A stretch of 64,000 nucleotides of DNA from Balanoglossus misakiensis (Eukaryota > Animalia > Hemichordata). The position numbers and the translations under genes are program-made. This document shows, piece after piece, positions 1,612 to 61,590 of the stretch (position 1 is its first letter; each line of letters opens with the position of its first letter). The notes under the pieces were generated by a model that did not search any database, was not told where the DNA came from, and saw only the letters and a program-made list of their open reading frames with translations. Location of the stretch: assembly GCA_040954595.2 (NCBI GenBank), contig CM082588.2, positions 12,289,398-12,353,397 on the forward strand, given 5' to 3'.

Positions 1612-3089
1612 TACGGCGCGCCAAGTGTTTCAAAATTATTTATCATTATTTTATAGAAAATTGATGTCTTTTAACAAAAAAATACGTAAAAACAGAAAAA
1701 ACTGATTGGTGGTTTAAAAAACGAGTGTAAAAAGTAATCCATCGTGGAGTAAAAAAAACAACAACAACAACAACAAAAAACTAACACACAGAGAAGAAAA
1801 TCTCACCTGTTGTCAAAAAAAACCCACCAAGCTTACCAAAAAAACGTCCACAAGGCAGTTGCAAAAAAAAAAAATCACTAATTTGTCACAAAAAAAACAC
1901 GCGCACATTTTTCACGAAAAACGCACACTTCACAAAAAATACACACAAAGTATTAAAAAGAACACTCTTTGAAAAAAAAGAGAGACTACAACTTTTAAAA
2001 ATGCACACCCCCAGAACAAACAACACAGGCAAACATAGAAAAAACACGAACATGTTAGCCATAAAAAACGGAGATATTTGTCACCGAAAAAAAACCCCGC
2101 ACTCATGTCACCCAAAAACTAACGGGCCACTTTAAAAAACGCAGATGCACTGAGGTTGCAAAAATAAGCACATTTTTAATCCCCCGAAAAAAAAAACAGG
2201 CAATTTGAAAAAAAAACACACAGCAATTTGCAAAAAAAAAAAAAAAAAAAAGGAACATTTGTCACCCCCCAAAAAACATGCAATTTGAAAAAAAAACGCA
2301 GAGCAATTTACCAAAAAAAAAAAATATAGGAACATTTGTCACCCAAAAAAACCAGGCAATTTGAAAAAAAAAACGCAGAGCAATTTGCAAAAAAAAATAT
2401 AGGAACATTTGTCACCCAAAAAAAAAACAAGCAATTTAAAAAAAAAAAAACGCAGAGCAATTTGCAAAAAAAAAAAATATAGGAACATTTGTCACCCAAA
2501 AAAAAAAAACAGGCAATTTGAAAAAAAAACGCAGAGCAATTAGCAAAAAAAAGAAAATATAGGAACATTTGTCACCCCAAAAAACATGCAATTTGAAAAA
2601 AAAAACGCAGAGCAATTTGCAAAAAAAAAATAATAGGAACATTTGTCACCCAAAAAACAGGCAATTTGAAAAAAAAAACACGATATAAAATTTGAAAAAA
2701 AAAATATATAGGCACATTTGTCTCCCAAAATATTCAGGCAGATCCAAGTTGTAAAAAATGGTATATTTGTCATCCAAAAAATAAAATAAGCGTGTTTAAA
2801 AAAACGAGCATTCAGTTGTAAAAATAAATAATAGTCTTTAACAACTTGAAAAAAAAAAACGGACGCATTTGAAAGAATAGCGTATGCGCATGCGCCGAAA
2901 AAAAAAATGAGTGAGAAATCCTGGGGAATAAATGCGCATGCGCAAAAAAAAAAAAAGTGAACAATCCTGGCTGAAAAAAAAAAGTGAGAGATTTCGGTAG
3001 AGGAGTCTGGGTAATATTTGAAAAAAAAAAAACGGAGTCTGAAAAAAAGTTGAATTGAAGAAGAGAAAAGAAAGGGGAAACGCACAAAC
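1612..3089 (+). repeat. Left terminal inverted repeat (~1.48 kb) with internal ~77-bp A-rich tandem array
   Basis: Colinear reverse complement of 20662-22274; aggaacatttgtcacc recurs at ~2251, 2328, 2401, 2481, 2561, 2635. Confidence 0.93.
2885..2944 (+). promoter_or_regulatory. Two NRF1-type motifs (TGCGCATGCGCA) at inner end of left TIR; candidate promoter of cargo genes
   Basis: tgcgcatgcgcc at 2885-2896 and perfect palindrome tgcgcatgcgca at 2933-2944. Confidence 0.5.
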
Positions 3090-3569
3090 AACTGCTAGGT
3101 GTCGAGATACGTGGGAGTGAACTCCGAAGCATCTTTTGGGCATCATCGTTATCAATCGACATCCACAAAAGGTGTGTATCATCTGTATGTTATATTTAAG
3201 TTTATTTTAACCGTGGATAGCTGCAGTGCATGACAAGTCGTTATTTTGCATGGATTGCATCATGTTTAAAAAATCATGTTATCGAGTGAACTTTCTTATT
3301 CTACTATTTCCGAAGTATAAAAGTTCAGTTGTGTCTTTTCGCATCGTTTCGCATATAGTTAGCTCTGCGTGACAGGGCTGTGTGACGAAGATCGACGCAC
3401 GTTTTGAGTTCGGAATCGGCCGTTTTTGGTAAGGAAACCATACCGCAACAAATCCGTTGAGTTTCGCCAGGTTTGGCTATGTAGCTTAGCAGGGCTGTGA
3501 TTGGAGGCGTAGCCGTTAACAACACACAGCCCTGGTAGCTAAATTCCCACCGCTGGAGTGATGTAACAG

Positions 3570-3606
3570 CACAGGGGACTCTCCCTCCGCGATTTTGTTT
3601 GTTTGT

Positions 3607-3638
<32 letters not shown>

Positions 3639-3796
3639 GATGATGATAATACCCTAACACTTACATGTCAACAAACCATATTTATTAATAAAGAAATATG
3701 TATTTGTTTATTATGCCAAAAATCACCATCATCATCATCATCAACAACAACAACAACAAACAAACAGACAAAATTGCGGAGGGAGAGTCCCCTGTG
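3570..3796. mobile_element. Palindromic MITE with CA...TG ends and 7-bp TSD (P-element-like)
   Basis: gtaacag|cacaggggactctccctccgc ... gcggagggagagtcccctgtg|gtaacag; arms contain mirrored (GTT)n/(AAC)n tracts. Confidence 0.75.
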
Positions 3797-4022
3797 GTAA
3801 CAGGGCAATGTGTTGCTTTGCGGCTTGCTGCCAACCGCCAGCGGTTGATGATAGTTTACCAAGACAATTAACTTACATTCTTGAATTGTATGTAGTATTT
3901 CACATAGAGATGCATGGCATATTTTCATGTGTTACATTTTAACATACAGTTATTCCTCATTATGGTCTTTGTGAAATAATGTTTCATATATTTTTCATAT
4001 CTTCTTTCCAAAAGTCATCAGA

Positions 4023-7000
4023 ATGGATAATACACAAAGGTCAGAAATACAAAGAACATTGGACTCAATGGACACACTTGAAGTAAGAACAGCCGTAAAC
4101 AATTTATTTAGGGGAAGAAGGCAGCCAGCTCAAGTACAACAATTACACAACACACCACATAACACCAGCCGCGCACAAAATCCTAGGACACATCAAGAAA
4201 AACTGCTGTATTTCCTCGATCCACAGCTGTATATTTACCCAAATCAAGAATGTACCATATGAAACTGTGTGTCCTAAAATATGACGAAGCAGTCATGATT
4301 GACACAACAGGAACTGTACATAACTGTGATGGAGACTGGCTTTTCAAAGGTGACATTTGCTTAGAAAGTAAATGGAATGATATACAGGTGGAGCGAGAAA
4401 TACAGAACATGATAAGCCTTGCATATCCAAACTATATGGAAAAATTCAAGTTTGTGGATGTTCCACGCAAGGGTTCAGTCCAGTTACGAATCGTTTCCCG
4501 CTCATTCAAATATACGGCAAAAGCAGTATGGGATACAAGGAGTTTGAATAAAACCATCTATGTCATGCTTGATTCAGAACATGACCACACCCAGGAAACT
4601 GCCAGCATTCAGCATTATCAGAGGTGTTCAAATGTTGTAGATACATATAACAGTACAGTGACTGCAGACGCGTCCCTCCAGTCCCCATCCATGGTACTTG
4701 ATGAAGTCACCACTGAGATTGAAGGAAATACTACTACTTTGCAAAGCCATGATGATGAAAGATATGCATGCACTACCGTTGTCCAACCTCTTCAAACAGA
4801 AAATGATACAACTATACAGCCTTTAAGTTTCACATCTAATCGGGCCATTGAAGACACTGTGCCATCTCCAACAAGTGAATCAATAAGATTAACAAGTACA
4901 ATACATGATGATACAACAATGCAGCTAGTGCCTTTAAGTTTCCCAGACAGTGTATCCAATCAGGCGAGTGAAGACAGGCCATCTCCATCAAGTGAACCAA
5001 TGGGATTAACAAGTACAACTCATGACACCCTATGCAATGGACCTCAATCAACCACTGGACAGAGTCCAATTGGTAGACAACACCACCAAATGGAAAGTAC
5101 TGCCAAGAGACATAAAGGAAATCCAAAGAATGTAAGTATCCTGCTCAATAAGTCTTCTCATGTTGTTTAGTTTCAATAAGAGAGCTGTGCTCAGGCTGAT
5201 GACGTGCTTGTGAGTGAGTGAGTGAGTATGTTTATGTTTGATCAACTGTACGCATCACAATTTTTTAATACAGCTGCTTCAATTCAAAATTTATGAAAGA
5301 TAAAAATGAAAATATGGAAACTATTTCTTTGAATATTGTCCTGCCCCCCCCCCTGACAAATTCCTAGGGGGTGCTAACATGTCAACAGGTGAACCCCTTT
5401 GGTCGAATTGTGTTAACATACAAGTGACATTGACAAAAGTCACATAAAGACAATTAATGCCATGATTTTCTTATTTGTAGGAGTGCACACTGAGAGACAT
5501 GATTTGTACTGATGGTGCAGAGCAGCTTGTAGATTACGGTAATGTGAACCTAAGTACTTATTCAGCAAAGACACATTCATCCTTGTCAGAAAAAGTAAAC
5601 ATGCATGATCAAGGGAGATGTAGTCTGATGTAGATTGAGTCATGACTTTTGAATATAAAAAAATGACGTTCTTGCCCTCAGTAAAATTTACTTGAATTTG
5701 CAAGATAAGATCAGTTGGTGCACATGCATATATTGTTCAAATGTCCATTATGTACTAGAATCCAAATAGTAGTTTAGCTGTGCCGATCTTCAATAAAATA
5801 AAACCTAAGGTTTGATAGCACTCTGAGATCCCCTAATTTCTTATGTTCCAGCATAAATCAGTTGATCTCAGTGTGATCAAATCCTTAATACTTACCAGAT
5901 TATGACCCCTCAACTTCTGACCTTTAGCCATTCTGCCATTACATGTAATTTCAATCATGCACTCTTGGCTTGTTAGAAATGTCTGTGCCCTTCTTTCCAA
6001 GAAAACAAGAAACTTTAAAAGGATGGTGACGGGGATATTGCCTTGTTGATAATTGAAACAAATTACTAGCTTCCACTATATGTAGTGTGTTTCTCACAAC
6101 AGGTCTACCAAACCCTGGCAATTACTGTGCAGTCAATGCGGTGATACACCTTCTTGCATGCATAAAACCAATTATGGAATGTTTATCTGAGGTGGTTTCT
6201 GGTGGTCCATGTATTGAAGCTGTCATTGAGGTATGTCAAACTTTTCATTTCAAGTTATGCAAATTGTCTTTAGGTATTGCAGACTAAATGGGCATTACGA
6301 TGACCTACTGAGTCATATGATTAGGTCCCATTGGTATAGGCATATATACCATGGGACCTTATGGGATCGGTTGCGTCTGTATGTATGTATGGATGGATGG
6401 ATGGATGGATGTATGGATGTATGTCTGTATGTCCGTCCACATCAAAAACTTGAAAACCGCTGCGCGTATCACCTCAATATTTGGTGTGTAGGTGCAGGCT
6501 GGGCTTTAGATGGGAGTTTGTCCAAACGAAGTTGCCAGGCCCAAAAATATGCAAAATAGCTGGAAAAATGTGAAATTTATCAAAACTCTGAAAGTCAACA
6601 ACTACTTGTCAGATTGCTTTAAAAATTGGTATGCATGTACCACATGTCAACTTCACATCGACCTGTAAGTGTTAAGTTAATATAATGGATGTTTTATTTT
6701 TTATGAATTTTTTAGTCTTTTTATTAAATTTATACCTTTACTTATATCTCTATGGTTAAGCTATGTCCACGTCTTATTGTGGAATTCTGGTCTGTGCAAT
6801 AGTCCTGTAATGTGACTGTCTATTGGTCAGTGAGCACAATGGGGCCAAAATAAAAGGCAAAATTTTGGGCTCACCTGTAACACCTGCTTAACATATTAAT
6901 TATGTGCTTGCCTAATTCCGGGCTAACTAATAGGGCTAGAGGTTTCGTTCTTGTGGGACATGGACCAGTATAGGGTCAAAATTTCTTGCCAAAATTTTGG

Positions 7001-10000
7001 GTGACCTCAGGTGACCTTTGACCTACTTTCCTATATCTCGGCATCCAGAGCAGGTACAGACTTGGCGTTTGGAGGGTTGGGACTAAAATTGAAAAGCCAA
7101 CATATTGGTCACCTGTGACACCTGCATATCTCATTTATTATGTGCATACCTAATTCCAGGCTAACCAATAGGGCTATAGGTTTGGTTTTTGTTGAACATG
7201 GACCAGTATAAGATCAAAATTTATTGCCCAAATTTTGCATGACCTCAGGTGACCTTTGACCTACTGTATCATATCTTGGCATCCAGAGCAGGTACAGACT
7301 TGGCGTTTGGAAGGTTGGGACTAAAATTGAAAAGCCAAAATTGGGGGTCACCTGTGACACCTGCATATCTCATGAATTATGTGCATACCTAATTCCAGGC
7401 TAACCAATAGGGATATAGGTTTGGTTTTTGTTGAACATAGACCAGTATAAGGTCAAAATTTATTGCCCAAATTTTGCATGACCTCAGGTGACCTTTGACC
7501 TACTTTATCATATCTTGGCATCCAGAGAAGGTACAGACTTGGCATTTGGAAGGTTGGGACTAAAATTGAAAAGCCAAAATTTGGGGTCACCTGTGACACC
7601 TGCATATCTCATTAATTATGTGCATACCTAATTCCAGGCTAACCAATAGGGCTATAGGTTTGGTTTTTGTTGAACATGGACCAGTATATTTGTCACCTGT
7701 GACACCTGCATATCACATTAATTATGTGCATACCTAATTCCAGGCTAACCAATAGCGCTATAGGTTTGGTTTTTGTTGAACCTGGACCAGTATAGGGTCA
7801 AAATTTCTTGCCCAAATTTTGCATAACCTCAGGTGACCTTTGACCTTCTTTTCCATATCTTGGCATCCAGAGCAGATATGCTTATTGCTATGTTGCTATG
7901 TGCTATGTTGGCTTGGGCCCGCTGCTTGCAGATCTGCTTGCAATGTCACCTGTAATTTTTATTCTGGTGTGTCACTGTTTCCACATAATCCTCAAATGGG
8001 ACCACAGTGTCCTTGACGCTATTTTTTTATAATTGTTTTCGCAATTTTCATGATAATTCATTATTTGTTATTATTCTTGACGTTATGTTTCTGTCAGTAC
8101 ATGCAGTGAATTGGTTTGTATTCATTCAAGGTAATATGTCACCTTTGACAGGTATTTTGATGTATTATACTTTTTTTCATATAATTACAATTACAAAATT
8201 AACTTAACAAATACTCTCCATTACAAAAGATTAAAGCTTATGACTGTATTCTTTAAAAAATAGTTATTGTGTGCAGTCATAGCTTCTCACTTCTAATTTT
8301 ACTGAAGTGAGCAAAGTTGTCTCTCACAGCATATAACAATTTACCTTCTTCTATGCCATAGGATGGGTTATATACTTGATATCAGTATATGGTAGTGTCA
8401 ACATTATTAAGCCAAAAATATAATATCAGGAATTTTCATAAAACACTTTTTCATCTATCATTCCCATTTAAATCTAGATGATATCTTTGATTGGTGAAGA
8501 GGATTGTTTGGCAGAATACGAAACAGCAGTAAGCCATTTCCTCAAGTGTATGCCACGGGATATGGCTGGCGGTGGGTATGACCCTGCAGAAGTGTTGGAC
8601 GAAACCTTGAAAGTGTTGTGTACAGAAAATGAGGTACAGTATTTTCAATCTTGTCTGTGTTAATTGATTTTAGGTCAGTCTTACATTTGTTCTGATAATG
8701 TAACTGTGTCAAGTTTGTCGGACATGAACCAGCAAAAATTTATTTAAAAAGTTTTTGGTTACCTTAGGTGACCTTGACCATCTTTCTGATATCTCATTAT
8801 CTGGCTCAGATACAGCTTTGGAATTCCGTGGGAACCACTTGGGCCCCACAAACCATGCCTGTAGATTTAGATTTTAGGTCCAATTTGATTTATATGTACA
8901 TATATACCATGGGACCTTATGGGATTGGTTGCGTCTGTATGTATGTATGTATGTATGTATGGATGAATGTATGTCTGTCCACATCAAAAACTTGAAAACC
9001 GCTGCGTGTATCACCTTGATATTTGGTGTGCAGATGCAGGCTGGGCTGAAATGGGAGTTTGTTCAAATGAAAAATTTGAATTTGGTCAAAACTCAGTGAC
9101 TCAAGAACTACTGGTCAGATTGCTTTGCAAAGTGTGTGTATTTACTTTATTGAGTTCTTTGTAATTAGGCAGGAACCCCCTCCTGATATTTATACACACA
9201 GCAAATTCCTGCATGATAACATAACTGGCTAAGTTTTAAAGATGCCAGCTGTTCTATTTAGTGTATGTACAGTACATATGCCATTGGCAGCTTATGGGTC
9301 AGTCAGTGTTTGCTCTTTGATCTCTCTCTTTCTCTATGTGTGTGTGTGTCTGTCTGTCTGTCTGTATATGGCCATGTACTCTGGTGTAGACATTTTCTGG
9401 TGTAATCCCTCAATGGGACCACCGTGTCCTTGACGCGATTTTTTTTCTTCCAATTGATAGATTTTTTCATTCGTTTCATGTTTTATAGCATTTAGCACAG
9501 GTAATCCAGACAACTTTGGCAGGTACACGGAGACGGATCTGGATTTACGAGGATGAGGAATTTGAAGACGACAGTTATCGTCATATCCTTTGTTTGACCC
9601 TGCTGTTATAAGGGATTTAAGCTGTAACTGTTTGCTCTATTTTCAGTATTTTTGATCAGTGAATCAATTGCAGTTTTGTGGTCCTCTAACAACAGCATGC
9701 CATTTCTAGTACTGCACTAATAAACATAGGCTGTATGTGTGTAACGTAACATTGACCATTGTTATTGTTGACAAATAAATTCTTGTCCAGACTTTAATTA
9801 CATTTTTGAATGTGGGGCATTTCTTCATACTATAAGGATTTGAACAAAAAACTGCAGGAGATAAACAAACCAAAATTACCTGTACTGAAAACATCGAAAA
9901 GTTACAGCTAATTTCCTGACTTAAGTATATATTTTTGTAACAAACTAGATTCTTCATGTTGACGAGACCAGTGTTCAAGTGCATATATATCCATAAATAC

Positions 10001-11781
10001 TGTTGTACACAAACTCAGAAACTATGAATGGTTGTATGGTGATTTTATCACGCATATATAAAGTAAAAAGGTTGCTGCCCTGTGGTAGTAACTAACAGAT
10101 GGTGAGATAATGTGTTTTCAAGAAGTAGGGGTGGGCATTAATTTGAAACTAAATTGGGCAGACCTTTTCAGGGTGTGATCATTTTATAGGGAAAAATATA
10201 ACAAATGATACTGACATCATTGATTTTGCTGATGATTGTCAATTTAATATTCAGTTTTCCTATACATTACCTTGATACACCCCTGGTACGTTCTTCAACT
10301 AAACCCAGGATCATCAATTGACAGTATGCTAAATCATTTTCTCACAGAGAGAATGATTTATTGTTGGCGAGACATTCCTTCTAATGTGAAAGTCCAAATC
10401 AAAGACAGCATAGACGGAGCACCTGAACCTTCTGAACGTATGTTTTTTTATTTATTTGATTATACATGTACACTTAGTTACTTTGCTATATGTTTCACTG
10501 TTACAAATATAGAACTGAAAATATAGTTAATTTTCATAATTTCTCTTTGAGGGGTCACTGTATAAATATTGACATTGTCACGGTATCAATTTACCCCCAG
10601 AGATACTACAGAAGTAGAAACCCTTAAATGAAAAAGTGATTGTCATTTACTCTACTTTAGGGAGAAGGGAGGAAAAGGAACATCATTTTGTTTGTTTTCT
10701 TCATTATAGATGACAGCGTAAAGCATGTTGACTTCTGGGTAACAGAACCCAATTTAATATGTTTGGGGATTCACAGAAATGATGGTTATGGCAATAAGGT
10801 AGGTTTCATACTTTCTGTAGACTGATCATAAAAATGTTAATTATCAAGAGAAAGTGAAGTATAATTCATTGCACCACAACATGTGACTTTTGCTGTAGTT
10901 GCTATAGGGCATAAGCTCCAGGTCATGAATGATTTGACAACTGAGATGAGACACAAGGATGCTGATCAATGCACATACAGTAGCTGGGGCCAGTGCAGTA
11001 TTGTCTTCTACATTTTTCTAAATACAGTCAACCAAAAGAATAAGTAGCTTCTTTTATCCTAGGTAGAGCAAATGATTTAGGATAAATTTAAATTGTATAC
11101 TATTAGTCTTTGAAAAGTTTGATGCTTTTGTGATATTACAGGACAATAGGAGTATAAAAATTCCGAGGTCGATGACTGCTGAAGCACTGTTGTCTCCACA
11201 AGATTTCCCTGCATTCTGGTCACCCCCTGATATGGAAGTCACTGCCATAGTTGTGCATTCTGAAATAAGGGGCCATATAATGTTGTTAGTAAAGAAGGAG
11301 GCAGATACATGGTAAATATAGTCTGTTTGCTATGTTCTTCTTTGTCATCATTTCGTGTGTAAAGCTGTTAAATACTGAAAAGAATGAATAATCAATAACA
11401 GATCAGTTTTAGTGAAATTTAGTCTGTGAAGCCTCTTAATTGATGGTGCTCATGAGAACATGTATGTAATTGACTGCAGAAAAGTGATAATTGATATAAT
11501 TTTACAATTTCTTTCTTTGACAAATTACAATTAAAGATAAAGTTTGAGTCTCTATGCATGTTATATTAATGTGTTAAAACTTATCAAATTCCCTGCTATT
11601 GTTAACACATCTCATTTGTTTTTGTCTGTTCAGGGTCATGTATGATGATGACCATGTAACTGAATTTATCATGACTTCTGCCATTCTGAAGTATCTACAA
11701 GGAGGCAATCAACAAGACAGTGTCAATATCCTTTTTCTCTTGAAACCAGAACAGACGCACGTTTCTTGTTACTTCATGTAA
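4023..11781 (+). CDS. Multi-exon USP (peptidase C19) deubiquitinase-like gene; probable frameshift near 4180-4250
   Basis: Phase-compatible GT-AG exons 4023/4250-5131, 5481-5538, 6103-6230, 8478-8633, 9489-9579, 10255-10437, 10710-10798, 11142-11311, 11634-11781 give Cys box YGLPNPGNYCAVNAVIHLL, QQD-like box GGYDPAEVL, PNLICLGIHR, His box AIVVHSEIRGH, WVMYDDDHVTE and terminal NILFL. Confidence 0.82.
6321..8028 (+). mobile_element. Helentron-associated (HINE/DINE-1-like) non-autonomous element with ~240-bp central tandem repeats, in a USP intron
   Basis: 5' ttaggtcccattgg plus inverted copy ccatgggacctta, GTAT/GGAT microsatellite, central repeats (cacctgtgacacctgc at ~7110, 7349, 7588), 3' aatgggacc plus stem-loop gtgtccttgacgc and T-run. 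Confidence 0.65.
8874..9446 (+). mobile_element. Second, shorter HINE/DINE-1-like copy in a USP intron
   Basis: Same 5' module (ttaggtccaat...ataccatgggaccttatggg, GTAT repeat) and 3' module (aatgggaccaccgtgtccttgacgcgattttt) as 6321-8028. Confidence 0.65.
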
Positions 11782-12092
11782 CATGTTACAAAAAACTGTT
11801 GATTTTATAGTGGATAAAGTGATCAGTACACAATAATTTTTTGATGTATTTCACAAGTGTCTCAGTGCAGTCCATTTTAGAAATTGATACAAGCTCTGCA
11901 GTTAATGTCTGTTTGTAGGTGATCACTATTACACAGTCCTTGTGTAAACATTAAACTACCGTACACTTTGAAAATAAATAGAATATCAGTACTTTCAAAG
12001 AAAACTTTAAAGGCTGTAAAAGTGATGAACATGTAGTCATTCTAAAATGGAAAATAGAGTTTTGTTTGTCTTCCTTAATTACTCACTAATAG

Positions 12093-15000
12093 CTGTGTAC
12101 TCAAAGGCCGAAATGTTCAGTCCTTACCCTTCAAAGCTGAGTGATGCTGTGAGGATATCTGCTAAAGAAAGGTATTTTCCTGGTGACAAAACATCCAAAC
12201 AAAAGTTTTAGTTGTATGCAAAAGGACAGAACATAACATCTTTCATTTTTTTGCACATTCTATGTAATCAGGCAATATGTGTTTACTGTATCAAATATTC
12301 TCATTCGACATTGTCTAGCATTCTAATATGTTACCACAGATCTGTATGTGTGAAGACTTTTCATGATATGTCCAATGTTTTTCTTCATTCTGGCAAGAGG
12401 TAAAGGTTATTGTCGTAATCAAAGCCTCATAATGTCACTGAGTGTGTACATGTACTATTGTACCACTTTTTTCTTTTATTTTCCCTGCAGACTTCAGGAT
12501 TCTGTTGACTTGAGACAAATAAGTTGTGGATTAGGTAAATATTTATCATATGATAACAAACCATTTTTGTCCTTGCTGTTGAAAATGGAGGGATAAATGG
12601 CTTGTTTCTCATGGAAAAATGATAATATGTGACTTCTATATTTGATGTTGTTAATTTAGAAGATTTCCCTTCTGTACTGCTTAGGGACAGAGTTGATATG
12701 ACAGGACGTGTTTTTTTTTCCTTTTAAAAGAGTTGAATAGAGAATTGGTCAGAAGACGAGTTGGGAGAAGACTAAAATCTGTTGTTGGGATGGAGGATAT
12801 TAAGAAGAAAGTAGAAAAGCTTGCCATCTGCGCAATAAACAACAAAGCCCGGAGTACAATTAAGAAACAAGAAGAGGAGCCCCTAAATTTATTATTTTAT
12901 GGGCCACCAGGCACAGGCAAAACTATGTTTGCTAGGTTGCTGGCAGGTATGTTTCTTTTTGTGTCCATTCAATCTGTTACAATGTATAGAACTCATTAAA
13001 CTTTAAAGCTGTAAATTTGTTTTCAATATTAAAGCTTCAGTATTTCTCGTTTTCGCATAAATTTTGTTTGAAACGGCATCTTCAATTTCTAAAAGTACAT
13101 GATAATTGATTCTGAATCTAACAGTTATCATGCCCAGCTCTGTTCATAAACACATACAATTTACAATATAACGAGTGAAGAATGACTTTCTGTCCGGACA
13201 GAAAGTCAGGCTCTGTGGACACACGTGACTACTGCGCATGCGCACTCAAATGTGAATCTATGCGGAAGAGGTTTGGTCGCCCCAAATCTAGCGCCTCAGC
13301 GAAGAAATGCGCACTAATTCGGCGAAATTCTGGGAAGATAACTATATGGGAGAAATCAGTCGATGGAACCAGATCAAATCTGAAAATGGTCTGACATCAA
13401 ATATCAAAGTGGCACGTTTGCTGATCGAGATGTACAACATTTCCGTTGTAAACAAACCCGCGCATCATTTCAAGTGTTACGGGCAATATTTACAGCTTGC
13501 ATATAGCTACAGTTGCCCAAACCTTTCTTATATCTTCATTATGTAGTATTCCATGATGAATGTACAGGAAAAACGGGCATTTTTCGATGATGAAAAATGG
13601 ATACACACGAGAAATACTGGGGCTTTAACCTATAATTCTCAAATGTTTCAAAAAACACAATGCAAAAGTCAACACCCTTCGTAATTTAATGGTACAGTTT
13701 TCATTTCACAGAGTACCACTTTCACAGAACTGTGAGAAAATTAGTTTTACCTTCATTTTTATTACTTAATATTTTGTTCCAGGTGCAATATAAAGGATGA
13801 TACCATAATAGGAAATCAAGTTTTATTCAATGTATAAATAGAGAGTTTAGGGAGTATTCCTAGTTTCTTTCCACTTTGCATAGGCTGTACATGGTTATCT
13901 TATACCATAGGATTGTGTGTAAAAATGCAAGAAACCACCGATAAAATATTGTCATTTTCTTGAAATTGTCAGAAATAATTCAGAATGAGAATCAAAATCA
14001 ATATCTGCAAAAATAAAATTTATGTCAGACCAGCTTGAGTCTTGGAGTCAGCTCATCTAAAAACTCCTACCATGAAGATCTAAAGTGGGGAGAAGGGATG
14101 ACTCAGCAATTTCCTTTTTTTGGGGGGTCATAAAATTGTCGCTAAAATTACCATTGCTTCTCCAATAATTTCCATGTTTGTCTTTGAATCCACACGCACA
14201 ATTGTCATATAACTAGATGAAATGTACACAGTGAAGTGGTGAGGGGGGGGGGGGGTATTTCCATATCATGTAAGTCAAAACCTAGTCTGGTAATTTCTAT
14301 ATTCTAGATACAGCAATCGGTGCAGTAAATTCAAAAGCATTTTTAGTCATGGTTCTACTTTGTGCTTTGCCATTTCAGGATGCTTATATGATGTTGGTAT
14401 ATTAAAGGAAGAGAAAGTTGTTGAAGTACAGAGAGATAATGTTGTTGCTCAGTATCTGGGAGAATCAGAGAAGAAAATGAAGAAAAAGATCGAAGAGGCA
14501 GCTGGTGGATTGCTGTTTATTGATGAGGCATACTCACTATATAAAGGCAAATCTACGAAGGACTTTGGAGTTGACATAATAAACACCCTTATGCACTATC
14601 TCACTGGTGACTGTATGAGAGATACCCCAGTATTTGTTCTTGCAGGATATAAGATGGAAATGGAGAAGTTGCTGTCAGCTAATGAGGGTCTCTTAAGAAG
14701 GTTCAGGGAACCATGGATCTTCCAGCCATACACATCTGAAGATCTGAAACAAATAGTGTGCAACAAGTTGCTAATGCAGGGGTTCCAGTTTGAAAGTGGT
14801 ACTGATGGTGAGATCCTGGCCCTGATAGAGGCTGTACCGCCTGGATTGCGTGTGAAGTTAAATGCAGGACTTTGTGGTCGCATTATCGACTACATGAAGG
14901 ATAGCATCGATGATCGGGTTTGTAATCCATCCAACACGACAGAACTGTTACTTGTAAAGCTAGAAGACATACACAGTGTCAAAGAACAGCTGAGTGGGCA

Positions 15001-15241
15001 GTGGGTTGATGATCCCAAAACACACACAACCATTGGGATACAGACTGATCATGTGGAACTGACAGATAGTACTACAGAGATGATATCTATGAAATGCGTG
15101 AATGTCAATACACAGACAACTGGCCATGTGGAAACTGCACATACACATGCACAGACTGTGATGTTGGGTTCTCTGAACAAAGAGACGCAGACTGACCGAC
15201 TGGCGAAACTGATGATCAAGGGACACAGACATATCATGTAA
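12093..15241 (+). CDS. Spliced CbbX/CfxQ/SpoVK-family AAA+ ATPase (start uncertain; in-frame ATG at ~12113)
   Basis: Exons 12093-12171, 12491-12534, 12731-12946, 14379-15241 join in frame: VVGMEDIKKKV, Walker A FYGPPGTGKT, VEVQRDNVVAQYLGES, Walker B GGLLFIDEAYSL, LAGY, Arg finger NEGLLRRF. Confidence 0.88.
13029..13628 (+). mobile_element. 600-bp Kolobok-type element (possible KolobokP solo terminal repeat) in the ATPase intron
   Basis: ttaa-agcttcagtatttctcgt ... acgagaaatactggggct-ttaa; frameshifted ORF remnant RPKSS...RRNSGKITI/GEISRWNQIKSENGLTSNIKVARLLIE. Confidence 0.7.
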
Positions 15242-15317
15242 AACTGAGGTCAACAATGGGACAGAGACTAGTTTGACTTTCTATTATGTCTCACCAGACA
15301 GGTACAATTATCAAGAG

Positions 15318-16188
15318 CAATCTGATTAAAATTAGATGTAGTGTTGGGCGCCATATTTACTTTTGCTGATTCTTGGCTGTTCTGTTAAAAAGAGACGCCC
15401 ACACTACATCTAAACCTATGCCATAGAAGATCTCAATCAGAGCGGTAGTCTCGGTTACCCAGACGCCTTTGCTCTTCCGATGCTCTCCAGAAAAGGGTCT
15501 GGGGAAATACTATTGAAAGCTTTGTAAAACAAAATGGCCGATGTCAGGATTTTGATCATCGCCTGCTTGGCTGAGCTGTCAGTATGACCTTGGTCACTGA
15601 TTCTCGACAATGTGTGATTATTTGTCATATCTTCATATCAAGAGACCGGTACTTGTTGGTTGATGCGAAAGGCAAAAGGCGTCCTCTGTTAGCATTGTTG
15701 GAGAAATTATACGAAATATCTTTAGTAGACGATTGTCGAAACTATTGCAGTGACCCGGGTCATACTGACAGCTCAGCCAATCAGGCGATGATCAAAATCC
15801 TGACATCGGCCATTTTGTTTTACAAAGCTTTCAATAGTATTTCCCCAGACCCTTTTCTGGAGAGCATCGGAAGAGCAAAGGCGTCTGGGTAACCGAGACT
15901 ATCAGAGCGGTTGTTTAGAAAACTGGAGGTGTGGAAAAACAAACAAACTTGAACAATAGAAGTTAGTTTCCAGCGCGTGGCCAGTTCCGAAGTGTTAGGA
16001 AAGCCGCTCTGTGATTGGTCGAATGGATCCATTTGCCAAAACTAGATGTTCTATGGCATAGGTTCAGAATGATGTAGTGTGGCACGTACACCAAGAACAG
16101 CCACGGCAGAGAACAGAACAGCCAAGTCAAAGACAGAGAACAGAACAGCCAAAGACAATGCCAAACTTATCTGATTTTAACCAGATTG
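15318..16188. mobile_element. Non-autonomous TIR element with ~9-bp TSD, hosting a nested MITE
   Basis: caatctgattaaaatt ... attttaaccagattg termini; flanks tatcaagag / catcaagag; inner IR aacctatgccatagaa / ttctatggcataggtt. Confidence 0.6.
15446..15901. mobile_element. Palindromic MITE with TAG...CTA ends and perfect 9-bp TSD (AcademH-like)
   Basis: tcagagcgg|tagtctcggttacccagacgcc ... ggcgtctgggtaaccgagacta|tcagagcgg; ~150-bp near-perfect arms. Confidence 0.8.
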
Positions 16189-16215
16189 CATCAAGAGCAG
16201 AGAGGTGGTGAACAA

Positions 16216-16306
16216 TTATCCCTTTCACCTCTCTGGTGCCGTCCAAATCCATTGTTCTCTATGGTAAGGTTGGACCTCTAGAGGGAACTGGGGGTGAAAG
16301 GGTTAA
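16216..16306. mobile_element. ~90-bp piggyBac-like miniature element
   Basis: ttat-ccctttcacc ... ggtgaaaggg-ttaa (CCC...GGG ends, TTAA-like target). Confidence 0.5.
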
Positions 16307-17302
16307 GGTCATATTGTAATTCACTTACAAGCATTTAAATATTCTTATATGAAAATGAGTATTATTCTTATATGCAAAAATAGCTCTATACTATTATAGC
16401 TCCTATCACAGCCGTTTTAGTGATCTTTTTCACTCGTTTTTTTGTTTCAAAGCTGTTTTATTATTCCTTAAATCATGCTAGAAATAGGTGATCATTTTAA
16501 TGTGGATGTAATTTTGTTGATTAAAGCACCACATGGTTCTGACTCAGAAAAAGGTTTTTCTTTGGTTACTTGAATAGCTGTAACTTTTGACGTTTTTTTT
16601 TAAATTATTTAGCTTACCAATGCAACATTGACGTGTATACAGAAGCATTATTATTATAAATTGCATTCAACTTGGGACACAAAAGCATTTATCAAAAATA
16701 ACATCGGTCATTACACATGCACTGGCTATGTTGACAACCAGAACACGGCCATATGTAGTAGAACAAGAATCTGGTAATACACAGAAGCAGAATACGGATA
16801 AAACAGTAAAATGTTACTACTAATGTTGCTTTAAAATGGCATAAAGTACTGACCTGTGGTAGGGGAAAAAATTGGCATTTTCTGAAACCTTGGTGTAAAT
16901 GGATTGATAAAGGCACTACTTGTACACACCAGTGGACTTTAGTATTTCCATTTATTGACAAAAATCTTCAAACCAGGTCAAAATGTAGGTGTCAATCTAA
17001 ACACTGTCCCTGTTATTTTTTTATGTACAAGAAAACAAAGTAACTGCTACCTATATGATTTTGTGGAATACCAAGTCTGACATCAATAAATGTTTACAAG
17101 TTTTTTCTATGGTGTATTGAGCCATTAATAAAGTGTGTTTTTTTTTTTTGCAATGATGTCTTGTTGCTGTAATCAGAGCACATTCTTCAGTTCAGCATTG
17201 CCAGTTAAAAAGATACATTAAAATGTCAATGAATAATAACAATGTCGCAAACATTTTCATTTCTTCTTATCTCTTTGATAAATGGCCAAAGTACATTACA
17301 TG

Positions 17303-17649
17303 TTAAAGCCTCTGGAGCTGCCACTTTTGCATTATTTTCATGAATTAATTTAAATTGGTCCATCAAAATAAGCTTGCTGTTAGGTATAAACAAACATCTT
17401 ATCCATGCCTGATCATGGCTGTATATAGCGATCTGAAAACGCCATGTATGAAAACGGTGCCGCACCGATTTAATCAGCTTCCATACAAACAGTACGAGGC
17501 TATATTTGTATATGTCGCCAAGAGATGACAAACTGATGCAAATGCAAGTAATATGGCTTAATGGTGAGGATTTTAGAGGATAGGGAATATATTTGAAGTA
17601 TTTTACTGTGGAAAAAATATGCAAAATTTGGCAGCTATAGGGGCTTTAA
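17303..17649. mobile_element. Kolobok-type non-autonomous element, sibling of 1063-1375
   Basis: ttaa-agcctctggagctgcca ... tggcagctataggggct-ttaa. Confidence 0.7.
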
Positions 17650-17860
17650 AGGTATACAGTCTCCGATGCAAATTAAGCCACATGTACCAGCATGGAAAGT
17701 GGAAATTTAGCCACTAATATCTCTTGTTTTCAGTAGGTAGCCATGTGAAAAGAAGTGTGCCACTTCATCATGGTTATCAAAAGATTTATACACACCCTTG
17801 TAACCATACATGGGTAACCGGTATGTGTAAATTGGAGGTGATTGTATTTCTTTATGGATA

Positions 17861-20636
17861 TTAAAATGACATTTGTCTGATTAAGGAACATGCTCTAGTG
17901 TAAATATCAATACCCTTTTCATCACTTGCTGCTAATGGATCTATCCTTTCCTGTAGAGTCTGAAAACATTGCTCATAATTTGACAATTCAAATGTTGGTG
18001 ATAGCATTTCATTATTTGATTCTTCATCACTGTTGACAGTGATGTATTCTTCATCACTGTTGACAGTGATGTCAGTTTCCACTCCATAAGTGGCATAATC
18101 TATGTTCTCTGGATCTAACAGTTCTCTGATAGCAGTTTTATCAGAATTTTTGAATGCAGTAACACTTTGCAGCCACAGCTGATTCGGACTCAAATTGTGT
18201 TCTGTTTGCAATCTATGTTCATTCCAGCCTTTCCTAAAAACTGTCAGTGAATAATTTATACGAGGAAGAAAAACAAAATGAAGACACAGTATCTCTATAG
18301 GATTATCAGGATTTAAAAGACCCTGGCATTCCATCTGTAGAAAAACATCACGATAGTATTCCAAACAACATTTAAATGTATCTTGATGTAATCGTTCAAT
18401 TCTTTGATTATAAATTGATGATCCAACAATGTGTGAACCTCTGTTGTCTCCACGGTGTGCCAGCATGAAAGCTGCAACCGTTGTATTTTCCATCCCATAA
18501 TCAGATCTGACACGGGACGGAATGCCATATTCTTGCACTGCACCAAGGAAACCATCTAAAACAGTTGATGCCATCTTGTTGTTGGCAGCAATGAGGTAGA
18601 CAACTACTCTAGAATACCCATCTATTCCACCATGAACATATAGTCCCCATCTTTGTAATTTTTCCAGGCCATCTGCAAAAAATGAAATATGTATTAAGCC
18701 TTATGAAACTCTTGATAAATGTACACGTAGATCAATTCTATTGGCAAGGAGGACTATACATCACACACTTATTAATTAAGTTCAATATTCAGAAAAGCAG
18801 CAATCCACATACATAATTATGGTAAATGTTTCACTAAGAAATAAAATCAACATGGAAAAACAGCATCATGGCAATGATGCTTAAGCTAGCTTCAGATTTA
18901 GTTTGGCATTCAGTTTTGGTTTCGTGGGATGCAGGCCCACTTCATAAAACTGCATTTCCAGCTTCCTCACCCAAATTAGTCTTAAGTATAAAAAGAATAT
19001 GCTGAAAGACGAGTACACATGATCAATTGCTCAATGTATGACATGTACAACATTTTAGCACTTTAAAGTTATATTTAGATGTGGAAAATTATTTTTTTTA
19101 TCACATCAAATATGTACCTCAGAAGTGCATAATTGATTGGAATGTAAATTAAATATGAACACGGCCAAATGTGATCAAAATATTTTTCATTCTAAATAGG
19201 GTTTCCTAAACTACAACTATACAAATCAGCTCTTGATGCACAATTACTCTCCGTTACTCGAAACCGAAGATGTATCTGTATCAGACTGAGTCTAACTTAA
19301 GCATCTTTATGACAACTGTTCAATATTGAGTATTATATTATACCAGTATATTGATGGTGTAAATCACGCTATTTGATTGGTCGAGACACGACACGTGACC
19401 ATGGTATATTAGCCATATACCACAGTCATATATCTTAGTCAAAGAAAATGCCTTTTTAAAATGTTTTATGCAAAGTTTCAATATACTGGCATAATATAAT
19501 AGCAATAAAACACCCCCAGCCATGGTATACCACGAGATTTTGACCAGTTCGTGCGTATATGTCGTGAACTGGTCAAAATCTCGTGGTATACCATGGCTGG
19601 GGGTGTTTTATTGCTTAAATACAATAGTTCCATTTGAAAACATGCAGTGGTTTTAAGATTTCACTGACACGCATACACCTACATAGATAGATAAATACAT
19701 AAATAGATACATGATACATACATATTTACATGCATGCATGCATGCATGCATGCATACATACATACATACATACATACATACATACATACATACATACATT
19801 ACATGCATGTACGTACATACTATCTATCATAATAACTTTGTGTAATGTAAACTCTTACCAATATGCCATAAACTTTGTGCTGCCGCCACATTGTACACAC
19901 CATGCCTTTTACTTTTCATTCTCAAGAGTGGCCAACGCAGGGCTCGTTCAAAAGGTTCAATCCTCTGGAGACTTTCTCTTATTCGCTGTCTTTGAACGGA
20001 AACTTTCATAGATCTCAGAATACCTTCCACGATTCTTTCTCCGCAATGCTTAAAAGTCGATTCCTTGATTCTGCGTATGTGCATGTCAAGATCTGCATCA
20101 CTAATGGGATTGTACTTATCTGTGAAATCATACCCTAATGATTTCAATCTTCTCCATAATGTTTGACGAGATATTTGGAGCATTTCTGAGATATCTTTCA
20201 TTTTGAACCCGTATTCGATAAATAATTGTACCTTGTCATCAATATCATATGGTGGACGTCCAGGTTCACCAGTTCGAATAGTTTCAGTCTCAGATAGTCC
20301 ACAGTTCACATCACGAGACGTATTAACATTCCCAATCGTAACTCAAGAGCGAGGACTGTTTCCAGAGTTAGAGCTCCATATTTCCAAAACAGATTGCAAC
20401 GCAATATGTACAGAGTTCAAGCAATCCAGTAACAAATGAATGTCCTGCACAGAAACGGCCATTACATGGTGCTGCACCGCTTCTCTTATGTTCAGTGTGT
20501 AACGTATCATAGAGACAGTTCTCTCGACCATGTTACACACCACTCGCCGGTCATTTAGACCAGACGGTAACCTGTTTCTGTGGTCTGGAACAAGTATCTT
20601 CACTTCCTTCACGAAGGAATCCCATAACGGCGCCAT
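17861..20636 (-). CDS. IS3EU-type DDE transposase (HTH + integrase core), two exons, one in-frame premature TGA at 20343-20345
   Basis: Exon1 20636-19859 (GRPPYDI...ISEMLQISRQTLWRRL HTH, GERIVEGILRSMKVSVQRQRIRESLQRIEP), phase-1 intron, exon2 18672-17861; joined WHIDGLEKLQRWGLYVHGGIDGYSR, PSRVRSDYGMEN, NQRIERL, WNEHRL. Confidence 0.9.
19326..19618 (-). mobile_element. Double-inverted-repeat non-autonomous element (Crypton-like candidate) in the transposase intron
   Basis: Long palindrome agcaataaaacacccccagccatggtatacc...ggtataccatggctgggggtgttttattgct plus a second IR pair; other copies at 50498-51125 and 53079-53399. Confidence 0.6.
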
Positions 20637-20661
20637 GTTTGCTTCTCTTCGACCCTTATCG

Positions 20662-22098
20662 GTTTGTGTGTTTCCCCTTTCTTTTCTCAACTTATTTTCA
20701 GACTCCGTTTTTTTTTTCAAATATTACCCAGACTCCTCTACCGAAATCTCTCACTTTTTTTTTTCAGCCAGGATTGTTCACTTTTTTTTTTGCGCATGCG
20801 CATTTATTCCCCAGGATTTCTCACTCAATTTTTTTTTCGGCGCATGCGCATACGCTATTCTTTCAAATGCGTCCGGGGTTTTTTCAAGTTGTTAAAGACT
20901 ATTATTTATTTTTACAACTGAATGTTCGTTTTTTTAAACACGCTTGTTTTATTTTTTGGATGACAAATATACCATTTTTTACAACTTGGATCTGATGGAA
21001 TATTTTGGGTGACAAATGTGCCTATATAATTTTTCTTTTTCAAATTTTATATCGTGTTTTTTTTTCAAATTGCCCGTTTTTTGGGGGTGACAAGTGTTCC
21101 TATGTTTTTTTTTTTTTCAAATTGCCTGTTTTTTTTGGGGTGACAAATGTTCCTATATTTTTTTTTTTTGCAAATTGCTCTGCGTTTTTTTTTTAATTGC
21201 CTGGTTCTATTTTTTTTTTTTTGCAAATTGCTCTGCGTTTTTTTTTTTAAATTGCCTGTTTTTTTGGGTGACAAATGTTCCTATTATTTTTTTTTTGCAA
21301 ATTGCTCTGCGTTTTTTTTTTAAATTGCCTGGTTCTATTTTTTTTTTTTTTTTTTTTGCAAATTGCTCTGCGTTTTTTTTTTTAAATTGCCTGTTTTTTT
21401 GGGTGACAAATGTTCCTATTATTTTTTTTTGCAAATTGCTCTGCGTTTTTTTTTTTTTAAATTGCCTGTTTTTTTGGGTGACAAATGTTCCTATTATTTT
21501 TTTTTGCAAATTGCTCTGCGTTTTTTTTTTAAATTGCCTGGTTCTATTTTTTTTTTTTTTTTGCAAATTGCTCTGCGTTTTTTTTTAATTGCCTGTTTTT
21601 TTGGGTGACAAATGTTCCTATTATTTTTTTTTGCAAATGCTGTGCGTTTTTTTTTTCAAATTGCCTGTGTTTTTTTTTCGGTGGATTAAAATGTGATTAT
21701 TTTTGCAACCTCAGTGCATCTGCGTTTTTTTTTAAGTGGCCCGTTAGTTTTGGGGTGACATGAGTGCGGGTTTTTTCGGTGACAAATATCTCCGTTTTTT
21801 ATGGCTAACATGTTCGTGTTTTTTCTACGTTTGCCTGTGTTGTTTGTTCTGGGGGTGTGCATTTTTTTCAAGTTGTAGTCTCTCTCTCTCTCTTTTTTTT
21901 TTACAAAGAGTTTTCTTTTTAATACTTTGTGTGTATTTTTTGTGGGGGTGAAGTGTGCGTTTTTCGTGAAAAATGTGCGCGTGTTTTTTTTGTGACAAAT
22001 AAGTGATTTTTTTTGCAACTGCCTTGTGGACGTTTTTTTTTTGGTAAGCTTGGTGGGTTTTTTTTTTGACAACAGGTGAGATTTTCTTCTGTGTGTGT

Positions 22099-22132
<34 letters not shown>

Positions 22133-22274
22133 CCACGATGGATTACTTTTTACCCTCGTTATTTTTTAAACCACCAATCAGTTTTTTGTATTTTTTTACG
22201 TATTTTTTTTGTTAAAAGACATCAATTTTCTATAAAATAATGATAAATAATTTTGAAACACTTGGCGCGCCGTA
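20662..22274 (-). repeat. Right terminal inverted repeat (~1.61 kb) with internal T-rich tandem array
   Basis: Reverse complement of 1612-3089; NRF1-type motifs at 20791-20802 and 20839-20850. Confidence 0.93.
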
Positions 22275-23409
22275 GCCACCCACTGAAAATCCGTGATTGG
22301 CTAGATCTCAAGTTAACGTGGTAACTGTAGCTAAATTTCCATAGGTGACCGTATACCTTCTCTACACGTACTGTTGACTGACACACACAATCCCCTAACT
22401 CTCAACACATACATACAAAGACCCAACCCACTCCACGTGTAGTCTCCATGGCCATGCCACCTAGCCCGCAGGCTACCACATCCAAAAGCATACACACACA
22501 CAATACATGTCAATTTTACATGAGGAGCGGCTCATGTTCTTTATTCTAAACTTGAATGATATATAAACTGAAAATTTACCCCGCACCAAAACCCAGAGAT
22601 AAAACCCTTTTTTCAGGATAAGGGGAAAAAACTCTGGGAAAGCGTAGGTAATTCACCAACTTTACAAAAAATTCTATTTCTAAATTCATGCCTCTTTCTG
22701 CCTCACAGAAAGAAAATGTTGGAAGTTTTACAATACCAAGCAAAATTTGGTATTGTAGGTCTAAACTAAAACTGACAAAAATTAATATTTCATCTCTGAA
22801 TGAATAAAGTGTTCTCAATAAATCATAATAGGTTTGGTGTTACACTGTTCTAAATGTAGCATTTACAATTAAAGGGCAACTACCTGTAATTTTTGGTACA
22901 GAATTGTTAATATTGACAAATGCATTCAATTGACTTGAATACAATTGTTAACAATAACAATGCTGATTATGCATACCAGAAATCGTGGTGCATACATAGA
23001 CCAAAATTACGTACTGAAAAATTTATCAAATGTAACACATAGTGGACCTTAATGTCTATAAGAATGAATCTCAAACAATGTCACGTGAACGTAAAATATT
23101 AAATTTCATATTAAAATACAAAAAGAATAAAGTCATACTATTGAACACTGCACACAGCAGTTGAGTCTAAAGTGACTAATGTACTGGGGGCGATCCCAAA
23201 CAGAAACGGGTCATATAGTCATAAATATCCCCCACCCTTATAAAGACCCCTTTCTCCTTGGGATGGCTCCTGTGATAAAATGAAACTGTGCTAGACTTGA
23301 AGAGATATACGCAGGAAACCTCATCAGTTACAGCCACTGCGAAGACTTCATTGATGATCCCCCCAAATTGGGGGGGGGGGGGGGGGGGGGAATGTAGATG
23401 AATGTTGAA

Positions 23410-38300: not shown

Positions 38301-38486
38301 TGTTATAACACCACCAATTCCATAGTGTAATATTATTAACTAGTTTGATAAATCAGAAACTTCTGAGTGCGTGGTTACTTATACGGTATTTCATGTTTGA
38401 GAGTGCAAGGTTATGACATCCCCAAATCTGACTGGCAAGGTCAGAATGGGAACACCCACATGTGTGCAAGTTTTAATAAAATACAC

Positions 38487-38578
38487 CTGAGAGCATGACT
38501 GCACCCAGCAGATCACCCATTTACAAAGCTTTGTGTCATAACATGTGAGTATGATATTTTTATTTTTATAAGTATCAC

Positions 38579-38610
<32 letters not shown>

Positions 38611-38961
38611 CCATCATCATCATCAGTATCACCATCTAAACCATCATTATCACCATCTAAACCATTATTATCACCATCACCATCAGTATCACCACCATCA
38701 CCATCAGTATCACCATCATCACCATCAGTATCACCATCACTACCATTATTATCACCATCATTATCACCATCACCACCATTATTATCACCATCACCACCAC
38801 TATTATCACCATCATCATCACCATCACCACCATTATTATCACCATCATCACCATCACCACCATTATTATCTGAGAGCATGACTGCACCCAGCAGATCACC
38901 CATTTACAAAGCTTTGTGTCATAACATGAGAGTATGATATTTTTATTTTTATAAGTATCAC

Positions 38962-38996
<35 letters not shown>

Positions 38997-39351
38997 CCAT
39001 CATCATCATCAGTATCACCATCTAAACCATCATTATCACCATCTAAACCATTATTATCACCATCACCATCAGTATCACCACCATCACCATCAGTATCACC
39101 ATCATCACCATCAGTATCACCATCACTACCATTATTATCACCATCATCACCATCATTATCACCATCACCACCATTATTATCACCATCACCACCACTATTA
39201 TCACCATCATCATCACCATCACCACCATTATTATCACCATCATCACCATCACCACCATTATTATCTGAGAGCATGACTGCACCCAGCAGATCACCCATTT
39301 ACAAAGCTTTGTGTCATAACATGTGAGTATGATATTTTTATTTTTATAAGT

Positions 39352-39382
<31 letters not shown>

Positions 39383-39722
39383 CCATCATCATCATCAGTA
39401 TCACCATCTAAACCATCATTATCACCATCTAAACCATTATTATCACCATCACCATCAGTATCACCATCATCACCATCAGTATCACCATCACTACCATTAT
39501 TATCACCATCATCACCATCATTATCACTATCACCACCATTATTATCACCATCACCACCACTATTATCACCATCATCATCACCATCATCACCATTATTATC
39601 ACCATCATCACCATCACCACCATTATTATCTGAGAGCATGACTGCACCCAGCAGATCACCCATTTACAAAGCTTTGTGTCATTACATGTGAGTATGATAA
39701 TTTTATTTTTATAAGTATCACC

Positions 39723-39754
<32 letters not shown>

Positions 39755-54590: not shown

Positions 54591-54850
54591 CTGTAGGTTT
54601 CAAATAAATCTGTTTGAAAGACCAACCACACCGTCTCTGGGCAATTCCCTAACAAGAAACGCTGCACTTCGTCCACAGAAGTGTTAGCCGTCAGTGGACT
54701 GAAACTTGACAGTCTCACATTGTTGTATAAAGGAAAGTGATTACGTGACTGAAACTTTTATCACGTGACCCTATTTGGCGGGAAATGATCCTCCCTTGGG
54801 ACAGCATATCACATGACTATCACATGGTTTATTTTGTAAACCGGGTTACA
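54591..54850 (-). repeat. Truncated 3' LTR (U3 end only); polypurine tract ggaggggaatg at 54851-54861
   Basis: Matches 62124-62412 apart from one short replaced segment; no match left of 54591. Confidence 0.85.
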
Positions 54851-61586: not shown

Positions 61587-61590
61587 CTTT

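Follow-up and report, generated by a model that had tools for sequence, protein, structure and literature searches.

The closest described relatives of the element reported here are the IS3EU transposons, a superfamily now merged with GingerRoot and defined by TA..TA termini and target site duplications (TSDs) usually of 6 bp (PMC10045372). GingerRoot elements are reported to insert into GC-rich targets and, in 5 out of 77 elements, to have a TSD of 7 bp (PMC6839031), while an ancestral two-protein layout of IS3EU and movement in trans of degenerate copies of the IS3EU-related Styx have also been described (PMC10853768). Some IS3EU elements have been described as carrying TET/JBP and kinase genes, the TET/JBP proteins being presumed to counteract silencing (PMC12730594). 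Outside this superfamily, transposons such as Ginger1, Mutator and Helitron encode Ulp1 or OTU proteases, and a transposase-peptidase C19 fusion occurs in Trichomonas; a role of these ubiquitin/SUMO proteases in transposition has been proposed (PMC2836005). The element analysed in this work lies in a 64,000 nucleotide stretch of the genome of the acorn worm Balanoglossus misakiensis (assembly GCA_040954595.2, contig CM082588.2, positions 12,289,398 to 12,353,397), here called the window. It is a copy of an IS3EU/GingerRoot transposon, and the predicted product of its second gene combines, in a single chain, a ubiquitin-like N-terminal domain (N-domain), a ubiquitin-specific protease (USP) and an AAA+ ATPase.

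The element is delimited by long terminal inverted repeats (TIRs), and its framework consists of the following features.
1612 to 22274: whole transposon, 20,663 bp (about 20.7 kb)
1605 to 1611: left TSD copy, GCCGCCC (7 bp), assigned from the flanks and the empty-site paralog
1612 to 3089, plus strand: left TIR, about 1.48 kb, beginning with TAC (window self-BLAST)
20662 to 22274, minus strand: right TIR, about 1.61 kb, terminating in GTA (window self-BLAST)
22275 to 22281: right TSD copy, GCCACCC
17640 to 17870, minus strand: host-repeat paralog, an uninterrupted version of the insertion site (empty-site alignment)
17861 to 20636, minus strand: IS3EU transposase of 529 codons in two exons (20636-19859 and 18672-17861), D-56-D-34-E, with a TGA at codon 98

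The outermost 72 nt of the two TIRs are 100% complementary; further in, substitutions amount to 14/479 in the outer part, 23/600 in the tandem part and 8/331 in the inner part (2.4-3.8%), homopolymer indels are numerous, and the left TIR contains an A-rich array of tandem units of about 80 bp (2187-2730). In the one insertion examined the TSD is 7 bp long, against a usual length of 6 bp, with a single mismatch of the CpG type. The site obtained by excising the element in silico aligns over the junction with the paralogous repeat, with alignment scores of 60 for the left flank (maximum of 500 shuffles 36) and 64 for the right flank (maximum of 500 shuffles 31), and an overlap of 7 bp gives the top score by a small margin (113 versus 106-110 for overlaps of 0-6, 8 and 9 bp). 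Because the empty site aligns across the junction with the paralog, and both flanks score above all 500 shuffles, the element is a genuine insertion into a host repeat. Its left flank is high-copy in the DNA reads.

The transposase matches Pfam rva_4 (E 8.8e-67) and, as expected for a helix-turn-helix type lacking the HHCC zinc finger, its N-terminus gave helix-turn-helix matches and no zinc-finger match in the Pfam scan. Its core motifs, compared by eye and without a tree, resemble those of IS3EU-1_SK1p, IS3EU-4_DR1p and IS3EU-1_CVi_1p in the supplement of PMC10045372. An integrase-like DDE core of the IS3EU clade, TA..TA termini, TIRs and a GC-rich target support the assignment to the IS3EU/GingerRoot cut-and-paste transposons, and the ancestral two-protein layout of IS3EU (PMC10853768) is found here as well. 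The element departs from typical members in its TIRs of about 1.5 kb (100-150 bp in the published IS3EU/GingerRoot descriptions), in its length of 20.7 kb (mean of about 8.6-8.9 kb reported for Selaginella GingerRoot), in its 7-bp TSD and in the make-up of its second gene. All that the first-pass annotation, made from the letters of the window, had claimed of this framework was recovered, namely TIRs of about 1.5 kb, TAC...GTA ends, a TSD and an IS3EU-like transposase of the integrase-type DDE group; the comparison with an empty site agrees with it. An intact transposase reading frame, as autonomous members have, is absent from the window copy, where an in-frame TGA occupies codon 98 (20345-20343). 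The dominant contig over 19829-20737, one of a set assembled from two DNA runs of one sample, has this stop in common with the window, since its sole base difference lies elsewhere. By eye no intron convincingly able to remove the stop was found, and the minus strand holds no U12 donor. As predicted from its reading frame, the window copy cannot be autonomous. The first-pass annotation had noted neither this stop nor the frameshift in exon 1 of the second gene.

The second gene faces the transposase gene and was reconstructed with the help of four proteins of another acorn worm, Ptychodera flava, here P0121, P0122, P0123 (XP_070533303) and P0126 (XP_070564563). Its exons are as follows.
4023 to 5131, plus strand: exon 1, with ATG, short helix, probable beta-grasp domain (about 4241-4582), S/T-rich linker and a 1-bp frameshift near 4190
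5481 to 5538, plus strand: exon 2, from similarity to P0122
6103 to 6230, plus strand: exon 3, USP Cys box GLPNPGNYC
8478 to 8633, plus strand: exon 4, USP, YDPAEVL motif
9489 to 9582, plus strand: exon 5, USP
10279-10437, 10710-10798, 11142-11311 and 11634-11725, plus strand: exons 6-9, C-terminal half of USP with His (RGH) and Asp (YDDD)
12087-12171 and 12491-12534, plus strand: exons 10-11, last USP strand and bridge
12731-12946 and 14379-15241, plus strand: exons 12-13, AAA+ of the CbbX/SpoVK/EccA type, stop TAA at 15239-15241

Spliced together, the 13 exons give an open frame of 1,032 aa between 4187 and the stop at 15241, to which about 55 aa upstream are added (about 1,087 aa), and the predicted domain order is ubiquitin-like N-domain, S/T-rich linker, USP and CbbX/EccA-type AAA+. 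At the frameshift near 4190 P0122 has a single frame, and the contig that covers 3771-4221 is longer than the window by one nucleotide, an assembly error being possible; in the dominant contigs the frame of this gene, unlike that of the transposase, appears open. Across the USP-ATPase junction the model is identical to P0123 at 220 of 302 positions (73%). USP and ATPase are taken as one gene because their exons join in one open frame and match fused P. flava proteins, and we are confident that one fused protein is made through a U12-type AT-AC intron. Two unrelated spliced cargo genes pointing toward the transposase had been annotated at first; the USP and AAA+ exons and their orientation stand, their separation into two genes does not. 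The co-mobilised protein-remodelling module postulated there is supported by even contig depth over the genes and by P. flava copies on three contigs (below), in a tighter form, as a single polypeptide with a probable ubiquitin-like N-domain. Two further observations concern this gene: at window position 12829 a Cys codon replaces the Arg of the dominant contig and of P. flava, a CpG-type change private to the window copy, and intron 3 houses a high-copy tandem array with a 239-bp unit (6852-7878).

Two of its introns carry U12-type signals.
11726 to 12086, plus strand: predicted U12-type AT-AC intron joining USP to ATPase, with donor ATATCCTTT, branch site TTCCTTAAT at 12071 and CAC acceptor
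9583 to 10278, plus strand: probable second U12-type intron, inside USP, with a perfect ATATCCTTT donor and a likely AC acceptor at 10278

Measured against the U12 consensus ([G/A]TATCCTT donor, TTCCTT[G/A]AC branch site close to the 3' end; 10.1101/2020.10.12.336362), the junction intron has 8/8 donor positions, 8/9 branch-site positions and AT-AC ends, the full set of signals. Of 44 in-frame, stop-free joins the AT-AC join is the best by homology, with a score of 314, and gives a gap-free alignment to the P. flava fusion; GT/GC-AG joins, of which the top one reached 271, were rejected at this junction. The intron is likely to be of the U12 type. In the window ATATCCTTT occurs only at 11726 and at 9583, the latter at the end of exon 5; since about 0.7 occurrences of such 9-mers are expected per strand, it is their positions and not their count that constitute evidence. 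The second intron has a weaker branch site and an in-frame alternative acceptor (AG at 10254), and homology fits either acceptor. Retention of the junction intron would end the frame at TAA 11779-11781, and slow splicing of this minor intron would determine how much truncated, USP-only product is made relative to the complete fusion.

In the USP the Cys box, His box and Asp occur in order, as in peptidase C19, and the YDPAEVL motif presumably corresponds to a known USP motif; from these residues we predict a deubiquitinase with an intact Cys/His/Asp set. The ATPase has Walker A (GPPGTGKT), a pore loop (QYLG), Walker B (FIDEAY) and an Arg finger (LLRRF). Its best matches in sequence and fold belong to the CbbX/SpoVK/EccA clade (PDB 3syk, 3zuh, 9lur), the closest solved relative being CbbX, a protein-remodelling AAA+, and it differs from these proteins in its fusion to a USP, its occurrence in an animal, its missing sensor-2 Arg and scores far below the NCBIfam equivalog cut-offs of all three families (121-153 bits against 423-467 for P0121 and the window exon). 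A fold search with P0126 returned rows filled by AAA proteins. For the N-domain the top rows of a search with its model were ubiquitin-like (best Z 5.8), and the best predicted-structure Atlas rows for the N-domain of P0122 include a chordate cluster (TM 0.66) with HECT in 27% of its members; on these models it is a probable beta-grasp, that is ubiquitin-like, domain.

For all three regions of the gene the closest relatives found were P. flava proteins. When the His-box exon was searched against 1.84 billion representatives there were four matches, two of them repeat-rich noise and two real (P0123 and P0126), both from P. flava and both with the USP running directly into the AAA domain in one chain. 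P0126, a diverged paralog with 42% identity, scores above the UCH (38.1 bits, E 1.7e-9) and AAA thresholds of Pfam. Compared with P. flava, the AAA core is 89-90% identical, the C-terminal half of the USP 67% (110/163 versus P0123), the N-domain 63% and the linker 30%, a gradient as expected under purifying selection. The P. flava matches lie on three chromosome-scale contigs (40.3, 48.2 and 63.0 Mb); P0122 and P0123 have neighbouring accessions on the same contig, and P0121 and P0123, on different contigs, are identical at 104/104 positions. RefSeq splits the gene (XP_070533300, XP_070533303, XP_070556525, XP_070564563), naming two of the models "ESX-1 secretion system protein EccA1-like", and both USP-bearing models start near the first U12 intron. 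In a search with the ATPase among longer proteins no animal relative was evident, the best 120 of 249 matches being multi-AAA proteins, of which those with a name came from bacteria or algae. When P0126 was used for a feature search of the Atlas, the list contained AAA clusters only (up to 0.77; some from giant viruses, a lead only) and no UCH+AAA cluster, and viral contigs gave no match to the transposase, P0123 or P0126 and six 16-mer matches to the TIR tip without extension.

What usually occupies the position of this gene was seen in 19 metagenome loci with related transposases, for six of which the convergent reading frames were scanned; HECT was found in five of the six, in one above the cut-off.
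L001, L005, L013, L014 and L017: IS3EU elements whose second, convergent gene encodes a HECT ligase

Because HECT ligase fills the slot in 5/6 relatives, the gene described here appears to be a version of the second gene native to the element and not a pair of passengers. With the IS3EU-HECT elements it shares the head-to-head layout, a ubiquitin-system enzyme and a probable N-terminal beta-grasp domain, the homology of the latter being read from predicted structure only; a ligase there stands against a deubiquitinase plus ATPase here. No USP or ATPase was found beside the 19 transposase relatives (best tblastn E 0.04; contigs of 1.3-9 kb). Probably, then, USP-AAA took the place of the HECT domain in the second gene and the N-terminal ubiquitin-like domain was kept, a change from ligase to eraser that is likely but short of proof because the N-domains are alike in predicted structure and not significantly in profile comparison. 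The Ulp1, OTU and C19 proteases of other transposons are, in the account of PMC2836005, for the most part joined to the transposase itself and lack an ATPase, whereas the present USP belongs to a separate gene and is fused to an AAA+ motor. The literature searched contained no report of a USP-AAA+ fusion in a transposon and none of transposon genes with U12 introns; outside the scope of that search were Repbase, Dfam and bioRxiv supplements, which may describe the fusion. One of the IS3EU-HECT elements is bounded by an inverted repeat just beyond which lies a YqaJ-like exonuclease gene (L018, 5555-6202).

Copies of the element were followed in the contigs of the two DNA runs, whose depth is not a copy number. 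In run X1 the depth of interior contigs is flat (264-354 per contig) over N-domain, USP, ATPase and transposase, and the contigs differ from the window by 14 substitutions in 13,653 bp. If the lowest-depth contigs, mostly at 20-35, are taken as baseline, depth alone suggests a young family of roughly 10-17 copies. Unique parts of the TIRs reach 1,300-1,545, more than twice the interior, which suggests that further TIR-bearing relatives exist. Run X1 (record 4) also contains, at a depth of 19.6, a more distant relative of the exon for the N-domain (window 4238-4598), with 43 substitutions and 16 gaps, which represents another family or an old copy in the same sample. Short inverted-repeat inserts are present within the element at 3570-3796, 13033-13624, 15447-15900 and 19324-19621, the first three flanked by direct repeats of 7 bp, 4 bp (TTAA) and 11 bp, and the last with further copies at 50.5-53.4 kb of the window; dominant contigs break at several of these inserts.

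The TIRs may also serve as promoters, as in MuDR, the analogy for inward promoters borne by TIRs.
2886 to 2943: two GCGCATGCGC palindromes, NRF1-like, in the CpG-rich inner left TIR; predicted inward promoter of the cargo gene

The right TIR has GCGCATGCGC palindromes at 20792 and 20840, and its inner end lies 26 bp upstream of the transposase ATG. Four of the five GCGCATGCGC matches in the window are inside the TIRs (0.01 expected); the palindromes are NRF1-like. CpG observed/expected is 1.41 at the CpG-rich inner TIR, and the coding exons are CpG-depleted. With two palindromes near the CpG-rich inner end of each, each TIR likely drives its adjoining gene, and on balance we favour an inward promoter in each TIR together with mobilisation in trans of copies with a dead transposase, which would proceed as for Styx.

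By analogy with known disassembly machines we tentatively predict that this defective IS3EU/GingerRoot copy encodes, as ubiquitin-like domain, USP and AAA+ in one chain, the element's own segregase for recycling transposase. Transposase on DNA would be tagged with ubiquitin after insertion, the AAA+ motor would pull the tagged protein off the DNA after strand transfer, and the USP would strip the tag, so that transposase would be recycled. That the substrate would be the post-integration transposase complex is possible and is put forward with similar reserve. Three features favour the segregase, namely a motor of the protein-remodelling AAA+ kind, its fusion to a deubiquitinase and its place in the conserved second-gene slot of the element. 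Coupling of an AAA+ unfoldase to ubiquitin editing is known from p97/Cdc48 with Otu1/YOD1, and ClpX dismantles the MuA transpososome; both are host-encoded, multi-subunit systems of other AAA+ clades, and any likeness to the present fusion would be one of functional logic. More doubtful is the broader proposal that the second gene of animal IS3EU elements is modular, a ubiquitin-like targeting domain with interchangeable ubiquitin enzymes, and that the acorn-worm version would be a "mini-p97" whose CbbX-type motor dismantles the transpososome, gated by two introns of the minor spliceosome.

Several points weigh against a segregase. The module is not essential for transposition, because most IS3EU elements transpose without it. 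In Pfam the Cys-box exon stays below the cut-off, with UCH as its sole match (profile positions 1-30, E 0.03-0.08), and against PDB sequences the same exon gave no USP match; the usual GHY context of the USP His box is wanting, and the USP half of the P0126 model has a predicted local distance difference test (pLDDT) score below 50. The sensor-2 position of the ATPase reads NAG, not Arg. The N-domain model is of low confidence (pLDDT 48), and when profiles of this domain and of three HECT-linked N-domains were compared (three against two), the score did not reach significance (P 0.1; 14.6 versus a shuffle 95th percentile of 16.1). No intact transposase of the family was seen, the window copy and the dominant contig both being stopped, and window and contig data showed no further full-length copy flanked by a TSD of its own. 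A complex prediction for P0122 1-185 with three transposase pieces, run without alignments, gave no answer (score 0.00).

Among other explanations, it is rather unlikely that the fusion serves counter-defence, stripping ubiquitin from host proteins of silencing or innate immunity, or from histones, and extracting these from element chromatin, with transposase not a substrate. The presumed anti-silencing TET/JBP cargo of other IS3EU elements (PMC12730594), the recurrence of Ulp1, OTU and C19 proteases noted for unrelated transposons (PMC2836005) and the contrast of CpG-rich TIRs with CpG-depleted coding exons would suit this explanation; however, in related elements the same slot and probably the same N-domain belong to a ligase, whose chemistry is the opposite, which fits the tuning of one element-linked substrate better than it fits a generic eraser, and domain scans of the window proteins and the P. 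flava relatives found no chromatin-reader domain. Capture of a host USP-AAA gene with old U12 introns, Pack-style and without benefit to transposition, is unlikely. U12 introns are described as typically ancient and seldom gained (10.1101/2020.10.12.336362), which points to a host-gene origin, GingerRoots are reported to capture intron-bearing gene fragments (22/77; PMC6839031), and P0126 is a possible parental gene, but here a whole gene is kept in a conserved second-gene slot, conservation between the two species is domain-specific, and the search of 1.84 billion representatives found no relative outside P. flava. Improbable, too, is a gene with a host function, such as immunity, whose copies multiplied through segmental duplication or through hitch-hiking with a dead element: the dominant contig has the transposase stop, yet the cargo frame appears open, and copy number is read from depth, but clean TIR ends, a TSD and the uninterrupted target paralog indicate transposition. 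Lastly, two separate genes for USP and ATPase, as hinted at by the stop that unspliced exon 9 meets at 11779-11781, an ATG at 12112 and the ATPase-only RefSeq model P0121, are most improbable, given two fused P. flava proteins, the gap-free alignment restored by the AT-AC join and the conservation as protein of residues 5' of that ATG.

Elsewhere in the window a Gypsy/Ty3-type retrotransposon (family assigned from motifs by eye) lies on the minus strand at 54639-62412, with long terminal repeats of 212 bp that are 98.6% identical and a pol reading frame of 1,242 aa at 55407-59135. Positions 38391-40349 hold a low-complexity array of several units of about 380 bp, rich in CAT/CAC triplets.

The segregase reading bears on two open questions, how eukaryotic transpososomes are disassembled after strand transfer and why unrelated transposons have repeatedly gained ubiquitin/SUMO enzymes, and a slot in which a deubiquitinase with a motor has taken over from a ligase would offer a direct comparative test. 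A single-chain USP-AAA+ is an unusual architecture, and its fused gene with predicted U12 introns may explain the fragmented, "EccA1-like" models in databases. U12 introns in a transposon-borne gene would either record an old capture of a host gene or mean that transposons can spread minor introns. If the mini-p97 reading is true, this would be a eukaryotic transposon that encodes its own disassembly machine and depends on the U12 spliceosome to make it.

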